A stretch of DNA of 64,000 bases from the NCBI RefSeq assembly GCF_046105845.1, contig NZ_CP151004.1; one strand, written 5' to 3'. The stretch is from Escherichia coli. GTDB lineage: Bacteria > Pseudomonadota > Gammaproteobacteria > Enterobacterales > Enterobacteriaceae. Position 1 is the first letter of the stretch. The number at the start of each line of letters is the position of its first letter. The position numbers were made by a program, and so were the translations under genes. Of the stretch, positions 61,130 through 61,284 are shown in pieces. The notes under the pieces were generated by a model. That model searched no databases, had not been told where the DNA came from, and saw nothing but the letters and a program-made list of their open reading frames with translations.

Positions 61130-61205
61130 AACTGAAGTTGCCCTGAAAATGAAATTTTTTTGCACAACCGCAGAACTTTTCCGCAGGGCATCAGTCTTAA
61201 TTAGT

Positions 61206-61284
61206 GCCACTGCTTTTCTTTGATGTCCCCATTTTGTGGAGCCCATCAACCCCGCCATTTCGGTTCAAGGTTGGTGGGTTTTTT
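61206..61284 (+). ncRNA. rybB: RybB small RNA (sigma-E-dependent, Hfq-binding)
   Basis: gccactgcttttctttgatgtccccattttgtggagcccatcaaccccgccatttcggttcaaggttggtgggtttttt matches RybB as I recall it, with intrinsic terminator; sigma-E-like -35 ggaactt / -10 tctta upstream at about 61171..61200. Confidence 0.85.

Follow-up and report, generated by a model that had tools for sequence, protein, structure and literature searches.

The rybB locus

The window, by which we mean the whole 64-kb stretch of DNA that was analysed, carries a 79-nt small RNA gene, rybB, between ybjL and rcdA. The features of the locus are as follows.

59444..61129, plus strand: ybjL, aspartate:alanine antiporter family (NCBIfam NF003440, 1178 bits, cut-off 645); the protein is 100% identical to K-12 YbjL
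61152..61161, plus strand: A3T7 tract at -54..-45, conserved across 114 homologues, with the neighbouring -44..-36 unconserved
61172..61180, plus strand: -35 element AGAACTTTT, positions -34..-26, an 8/9 match to the consensus GGAACTTTT (PMC1804206)
61193..61200, plus strand: -10 element AGTCTTAA, positions -13..-6, in which GTCTTA is a 4/6 match to GTCAAA (PMC1804206)
61206..61284, plus strand: rybB, the 79-nt RybB small RNA gene (Rfam RF00110 match, K-12 b4417 identity)
61206..61221, plus strand: 5' single-stranded target-pairing (seed) region, nt 1-16, containing the CRCUGCUUUU motif
61240..61284, plus strand: Rho-independent terminator and presumed Hfq-binding module, with a 12-bp stem, a 17-nt loop and a U6 tail
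61274, plus strand: sole base that departs from K-12 rybB (window G, K-12 A); it is nt 69 of the RNA and belongs to the terminator stem's 3' arm
61275..61287, plus strand: att core TGGGTTTTTTGTT of P2-like/Felsduovirus prophages, empty here, overlapping the terminator 3' arm and the T-run
61304..61840, minus strand: rcdA (ybjK), TetR-family regulator and convergent downstream neighbour; the protein is 177/178 identical to K-12 RcdA

The gene begins at G 61206 (+1) and ends with the final T of the T6 run 61279..61284. It opens with GCCACTGC, and the complete 79-nt sequence is GCCACTGCTTTTCTTTGATGTCCCCATTTTGTGGAGCCCATCAACCCCGCCATTTCGGTTCAAGGTTGGTGGGTTTTTT. An earlier note on this DNA had assigned a 79-nt segment ending in a hairpin and T6 to RybB, and had named a covariance scan as the check that could overturn the assignment. 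That scan, run over the whole window with Rfam 15, matches RF00110 (RybB) at 61209..61287 (+) over model positions 1-79/79, with 104.1 bits (E 2.5e-20) and a gathering score of 40. The match is offset from the gene by 3 nt because nt 4 of the RNA is the first position of the RF00110 model, which extends 3 nt beyond the annotated end. The alignment to K-12 rybB (b4417) that the note had also called for gives 78/79 identical positions, and the two genes agree in their 5' G and in their 3' U6 end. In the curated K-12 MG1655 record, b4417 is a 79-nt ncRNA at 887979..888057, between rcdA and ybjL. Aligned to K-12, the stretch 61120..61310 is identical at 190/191 positions and the K-12 gene ends fall on 61206 and 61284, which are also the ends that the earlier note had given.

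The similarity to K-12 extends through the flanks. The 86 nt upstream of +1 show no difference, and among the 64 differences (1.3%) over 5 kb only one, at 61274, falls within 61061..61564. rybB occurs once per genome in 5418/5426 complete E. coli genomes. The segment 61206..61284 (+) is almost certainly the chromosomal rybB gene of E. coli, and no evidence contradicting this identification was found in the present analysis. As the earlier note had it, the gene is not novel: RybB is among the best-studied enterobacterial small RNAs, the gene and its location here are both known, and its single-base variant is common and preserves the structure. The call is a correct one of a real non-coding gene overlooked by ORF-based annotation; it brings no new biology, and the window now has exact rybB coordinates and a promoter with a corrected -35 element. 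The remark that a six-frame ORF track would miss the gene also holds, since RefSeq/PGAP E. coli records show 'none' under the match in 30/30 rows listed. Among the records inspected, rybB is annotated only in the curated K-12 record, and the PGAP-annotated E. coli rows listed carry no feature.

Both neighbours, ybjL and rcdA (ybjK), are the genes that the earlier note had placed there, as confirmed by protein identity to K-12. The rcdA stop codon lies 19 nt past the rybB 3' end. RcdA has no NCBIfam equivalog at cut-off, with sub-threshold matches to TetR-family regulator models only; rcdA is annotated in RefSeq records whose DNA matches the 221-nt query 61100..61320 at 100% identity, a query that takes in just the last 17 nt of the gene. 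The sole residue change in RcdA relative to K-12 is Thr (window) for Pro (K-12) in SDVSDA[T/P]GAC.

Terminator structure and the variant at 61274

Homologues were collected by an exact-pattern scan with nt 5-25 as bait and one genome per species. The scan gave at least 120 loci, 114 of them full-length, from genera that include Escherichia, Citrobacter, Enterobacter, Klebsiella, Kosakonia, Serratia, Yersinia, Proteus, Providencia and Xenorhabdus; the structure alignment comprises 80 distinct RNAs.

The terminator stem is formed by nt 35-46 (61240..61251) pairing with nt 64-75 (61269..61280), and the 17-nt loop contains a 3-bp inner helix. The 45-nt module has a folding energy of -20.5 kcal/mol (z = -4.2), a value that no shuffle out of 200 equals. 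Over the 80 distinct homologous RNAs the stem is 98.7% paired, with compensatory double changes at 6/12 stem pairs, such as A:U replaced by G:C in 33 sequences and U:A by A:U in 25. Among the covariation controls, 500 shuffles gave no case equal to the observed values, and pairing was 24-47% when the 3' partner was shifted by 1-3 columns. Indels of 1-3 nt among the homologues fall in the loop and after nt 25. A 5' helix of the MFE structure (nt 2-5 with 31-34) was considered as a conserved feature and rejected; it has no covariation and is broken in 27/80 homologues, which fits a free 5' seed.

The sequence features of the window gene that usually go with Hfq binding are the terminator hairpin with its U6 tail and, upstream, AUUUUG. 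RybB's 3' part has been described as an Hfq-binding and terminator scaffold (PMC6694218). Hfq is bound by MicA and RybB, which together target 31 mRNAs (PMC4102768, PMC6694218, cited for Hfq binding).

The window gene resembles K-12 RybB (b4417) in its 79-nt length, both ends, seed, promoter, terminator architecture and flanking ybjL and rcdA. It differs at RNA nt 69, which is G and not A, so that the U41:A69 pair of the K-12 terminator stem becomes a U41:G69 wobble. Since this base lies in the terminator/Hfq-binding module, the allele might be functionally impaired, and the change does remove a Watson-Crick stem pair at a cost of 0.6 kcal/mol (-24.6 for G vs -25.2 for A). However, U:G is still a standard pair, the MFE structure is the same for both alleles, and the seed, promoter and U-tail are untouched. 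The window allele is also found, 100% identical, in 738/5420 E. coli records (13.6%), and U:G occurs naturally at pair 41:69 in 4/80 homologues, these from other genera. Impairment of rybB by this base is very unlikely.

A sigma-E-type promoter upstream of rybB

The sequence at -35 reads cAGAACTTTT. Sigma-E-like elements had been noted here before, and the tctta assigned to the -10 region stands, at exactly 61195..61199. The 'ggaactt' placed at 61171..61177 needs correction by one letter and a one-base offset, as the actual sequence is AGAACTT at 61172..61178, a 6/7 match to GGAACTT. The spacer from AGAACTT to TCTTA is 16 nt, and the -10 element is 6 nt from +1.

Two promoter blocks, AGAACTTT (-34..-27) and AGTCwkAA (-13..-6), are fixed in their distance to +1 among the 114 Enterobacterales homologues listed. 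Conservation across these homologues is as follows.

-54..-52 (A tract): 74-88/114
-48..-45 (T tract): 100-105/114
-44..-36: essentially random
-34 (A): 90/114
-33..-27 (GAACTTT): 112-114/114 at each position
-25..-14: essentially random
-13 (A) and -6 (A): 108/114 each
-12..-10 (GTC) and -7 (A): invariant, 114/114

The pattern GAACTT-N14-16-GTCNNA occurs once in the 64 kb against 0.31 expected, and at least one match is found in 26/100 shuffles. The sigma-E motif by itself is thus not significant in 64 kb, and the case is carried by the covariance-model score (E 2.5e-20) together with the cross-species conservation in a fixed register. A scan for consensus promoters and terminators reported nothing at the locus, because the scanner allows a loop of at most 8 nt (here 17 nt) and models sigma-70 promoters only.

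The conserved blocks correspond to the sigma-E consensus, -35 GGAACTTTT and -10 GTCAAA, by which Papenfort et al. recognised rybB as a gene of sigma-E (PMC1804206). RpoE dependence and induction by envelope stress have been reported for rybB of both Salmonella and E. coli (PMC1804206; PMC4102768), and the promoter ranks with the strongest ones of the sigma-E regulon (PMC1804206, PMC4102768, PMC6694218). By analogy with the near-identical K-12 and Salmonella RNA, we have high confidence that rybB of the window would likewise be a sigma-E-dependent gene. The A3T7 tract may be a distal UP-element-like subsite of the rybB promoter, to judge from its conservation, and such a role would fit the reported high strength of the promoter.

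A different account of the hairpin and T-run is that they are merely the terminator or 3'UTR of ybjL, any short RNA then deriving from the ybjL mRNA by processing or read-through. The ybjL stop codon lies on the same strand, 76 nt ahead of the rybB +1, and neither the scan nor a reading of the sequence gives a convincing terminator between the two genes. ybjL is also directly upstream of rybB, 68-104 nt from +1, in 95/120 homologous loci listed. Given this conserved linkage and the lack of a terminator in between, the rybB terminator probably ends ybjL read-through too. As an origin of the RNA, however, ybjL is highly improbable. The promoter-like block is fixed relative to +1 in 114 species, whereas the stretch from the block to ybjL is unconserved, and rybB has the same promoter but no ybjL upstream in 19 of the loci listed that have room for it, e.g. 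in Proteus, Providencia and Xenorhabdus. That rybB transcription is independent and strictly sigma-E-dependent has been shown with promoter fusions and rpoE mutants (PMC1804206). In Proteus, Providencia and Xenorhabdus (loci L010, L011, L015, L054, L071, L074, L077 and others) rybB keeps both promoter and seed with no ybjL ahead.

The chance that the conservation reflects a small protein is negligible: six-frame ORFs do exist at 61220..61351 (+, 43 aa), 61236..61451 (+, 71 aa) and 61121..61258 (-, 45 aa), but of the two plus-strand frames one (ORF A) is stopped within 5-27 codons in 59/114 homologues and the other (ORF B) retains its GTG start and an open frame as far as the examined region extends in 14/114 only, the minus-strand ATG is present in 15/114 only, indels of 1-3 nt occur, and the conservation tracks base pairs and not codons. 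The overlapping ORFs were accordingly rejected as coding genes, not being conserved in the 114 homologues.

Seed, targets and proposed mode of action

The seed CACUGCUUUU at 61208..61217 is intact and fits the published CRCUGCUUUU motif (PMC6694218). RybB nt 1-4 are invariant in the 114 homologues listed; the invariance of nt 5-25 is circular, since these served as the search bait, and the rest of the sequence is independent of it. In silico, with target sequences taken from K-12 and not from the window strain, nt 1-8 form 8 contiguous pairs with GCAGUGGC in the ompC 5'UTR, within -58..-41. This ompC seed duplex has -19.3 kcal/mol, and 1.7% of shuffled seeds are equal or better. The corresponding ompW duplex, at -16.3 kcal/mol, is no better than chance, with 10.4% of shuffles equally good.

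RybB accumulates upon RpoE induction and speeds the decay of many omp mRNAs, and sigma-E activity rises when RybB is lost (PMC1804206). As the promoter and seed of the window gene are base-for-base those of K-12, the functions described in the literature can be transferred to it with high confidence. MicA, MicL and the Vibrio RNAs MicV and VrrA, as well as Salmonella RybB, are alike in having a sigma-E promoter and in being Hfq-dependent seed-pairing RNAs that repress abundant envelope proteins (PMC1804206, PMC4102768, PMC6694218). MicV and VrrA also share the CRCUGCUUUU seed with RybB (PMC6694218). Outside the seed, however, MicA, MicL, MicV and VrrA have no sequence relationship to RybB and are encoded at different loci, whereas the window RNA is RybB proper.

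Under envelope stress, RNA polymerase with sigma-E (RpoE) would initiate at G 61206 from the AGAACTTTT-spacer-GTCTTA promoter, probably assisted by the upstream A/T tract. The 12-bp hairpin and U6 tail would end transcription to give the 79-nt RNA, and Hfq would bind to this hairpin and tail and to the AUUUUG ahead of them. The unstructured nt 1-16, with CACUGCUUUU, would then pair with the mRNAs of ompC, ompW, ompA, lamB, tsx and other outer membrane proteins, and the pairing would block translation and hasten mRNA decay. Fewer new porins would enter the damaged envelope, a feedback that would lower sigma-E activity. Our own basis for this scheme is sequence identity, structure, promoter conservation, genomic context and the ompC seed complementarity. 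The sigma-E dependence, Hfq binding, target repression and feedback loop would follow by analogy with the literature on K-12 or on the near-identical Salmonella RNA.

A prophage attachment site at the 3' end of rybB

That the rybB terminator and T-run are an attachment site for Felsduovirus is already published. Integration into rybB has been described as hotspot #29 for Felsduovirus in E. coli (PMC10121019), and the Klebsiella Fels-2-like island Kpn38RybB lies 'precisely within' rybB (PMC4048246). The locus resembles these and other tRNA-, tmRNA- and sRNA-gene att sites in that the 3' arm of the terminator and the T-run serve as the att core. It differs from occupied rybB sites in being empty, and the core identity covers 13 nt (61275..61287) vs 14 in K-12 (corresponding to 61274..61287); the identity to the phage is one base shorter because of the G at 61274.

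In strain NCTC9041 a P2-like prophage of ~19 kb lies between rybB and rcdA. Its genes include ogr, D, tail genes, a GPO scaffold protein, terminase, portal, replication endonuclease, CII, CI and integrase. The attL and attR of this prophage share ATGGGTTTTTTGTT with the K-12 attB, and this core takes in the terminator stem's 3' arm and the U-tail and goes on for 3 nt more. The attL reads ...GGTTGATGGGTTTTTTGTT followed at the boundary by GCCTGAAATTTAAGC, and the attR reads ...ACATAAATGGGTTTTTTGTT followed by ATCTAAAACTTATC. Upon integration the phage copy of the core restores the rybB 3' end.

A full-length attL junction is present in 582/5426 E. coli genomes (10.7%). With the 221-nt query, BLAST also gave ~550 surplus places, which were considered as extra rybB copies and rejected; sub-queries resolve them into attR and attL fragments of the prophage at the rybB 3' end. 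Compared with sequenced phages, the reconstructed attP has one match, Klebsiella phage 4LV2017, in its annotated attL (45 nt). As this is the sole match, the E. coli prophage type appears to have no close match to the attP stretch in that phage collection.

The downstream side of rybB is variable across loci, as expected for an integration hotspot, and rcdA follows rybB in 46/120 homologous loci listed. Seven rybB places in total are on plasmid-labelled records. One such record, the circular 'plasmid' p13TMH22-1 (NZ_CP019257.1, L124; 36,172 bp), carries the chromosomal order rimK-nfsA-ybjC-grxA-ybjM-ybjL-rybB and then genes of a P2-like prophage (ogr, D, tail, tape measure). Either the record is misassembled, or it is a prophage aberrantly excised with flanking host DNA that includes rybB.

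The G at 61274 lies at the left edge of the att core, and it is possible, though rather doubtful, that the G allele is a naturally occurring form of attB in which integration of the prophage into rybB is disfavoured. Most sampled attL junctions have the canonical phage arm, and ~60-80 exact matches to a G-allele attL would be expected were allele and lysogeny independent. No exact G-allele attL with the canonical phage arm was found among the 5426 genomes, the best full-length identity being 98.4%. The missing junction is suggestive but confounded by clonal population structure, which could give the same pattern.

The rybB-rcdA spacer, 61288..61299, is dimorphic in E. coli, with ATCTAAAACTTA in the window and K-12 vs GCCTGAAATTTA in strain MS1718. 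The two alleles differ by 4 substitutions in 12 nt, and the flanks are otherwise identical. The MS1718 spacer equals that of the phage arm, of E. albertii and of most other Enterobacteriaceae (L125 3483..3583; L004 6164..6264). MS1718 was considered as a lysogen and rejected as such; its site is empty, with a different spacer allele. From the sequences compared, the dimorphism looks like a recombination footprint, and it may belong to the same host-phage interplay as the G allele. Besides encoding the RNA, the rybB locus is an empty prophage attachment site with a minority single-base variant, which is useful for reading strain-to-strain differences here.

Other elements in the window

One perfect type I-F CRISPR repeat (CRISPR-DR4, GTTCACTGCCGTACAGGCAGCTTAGAAA) lies at 21146..21173 (-). 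No second CRISPR-DR4 copy was found in the 64-kb window even at 3 mismatches, and the repeat is therefore an orphan or an array remnant. A little ahead of it lie tRNA-Ser(GGA), at 20778..20865, and then an RtT-like element, at 20909..21043, which scores just above threshold (48.6 bits, threshold 45). The enterobacterial sRNA STnc130 (RF02084) has a full-length Rfam match at 5842..5976 (+), with 140.1 bits vs a threshold of 55.
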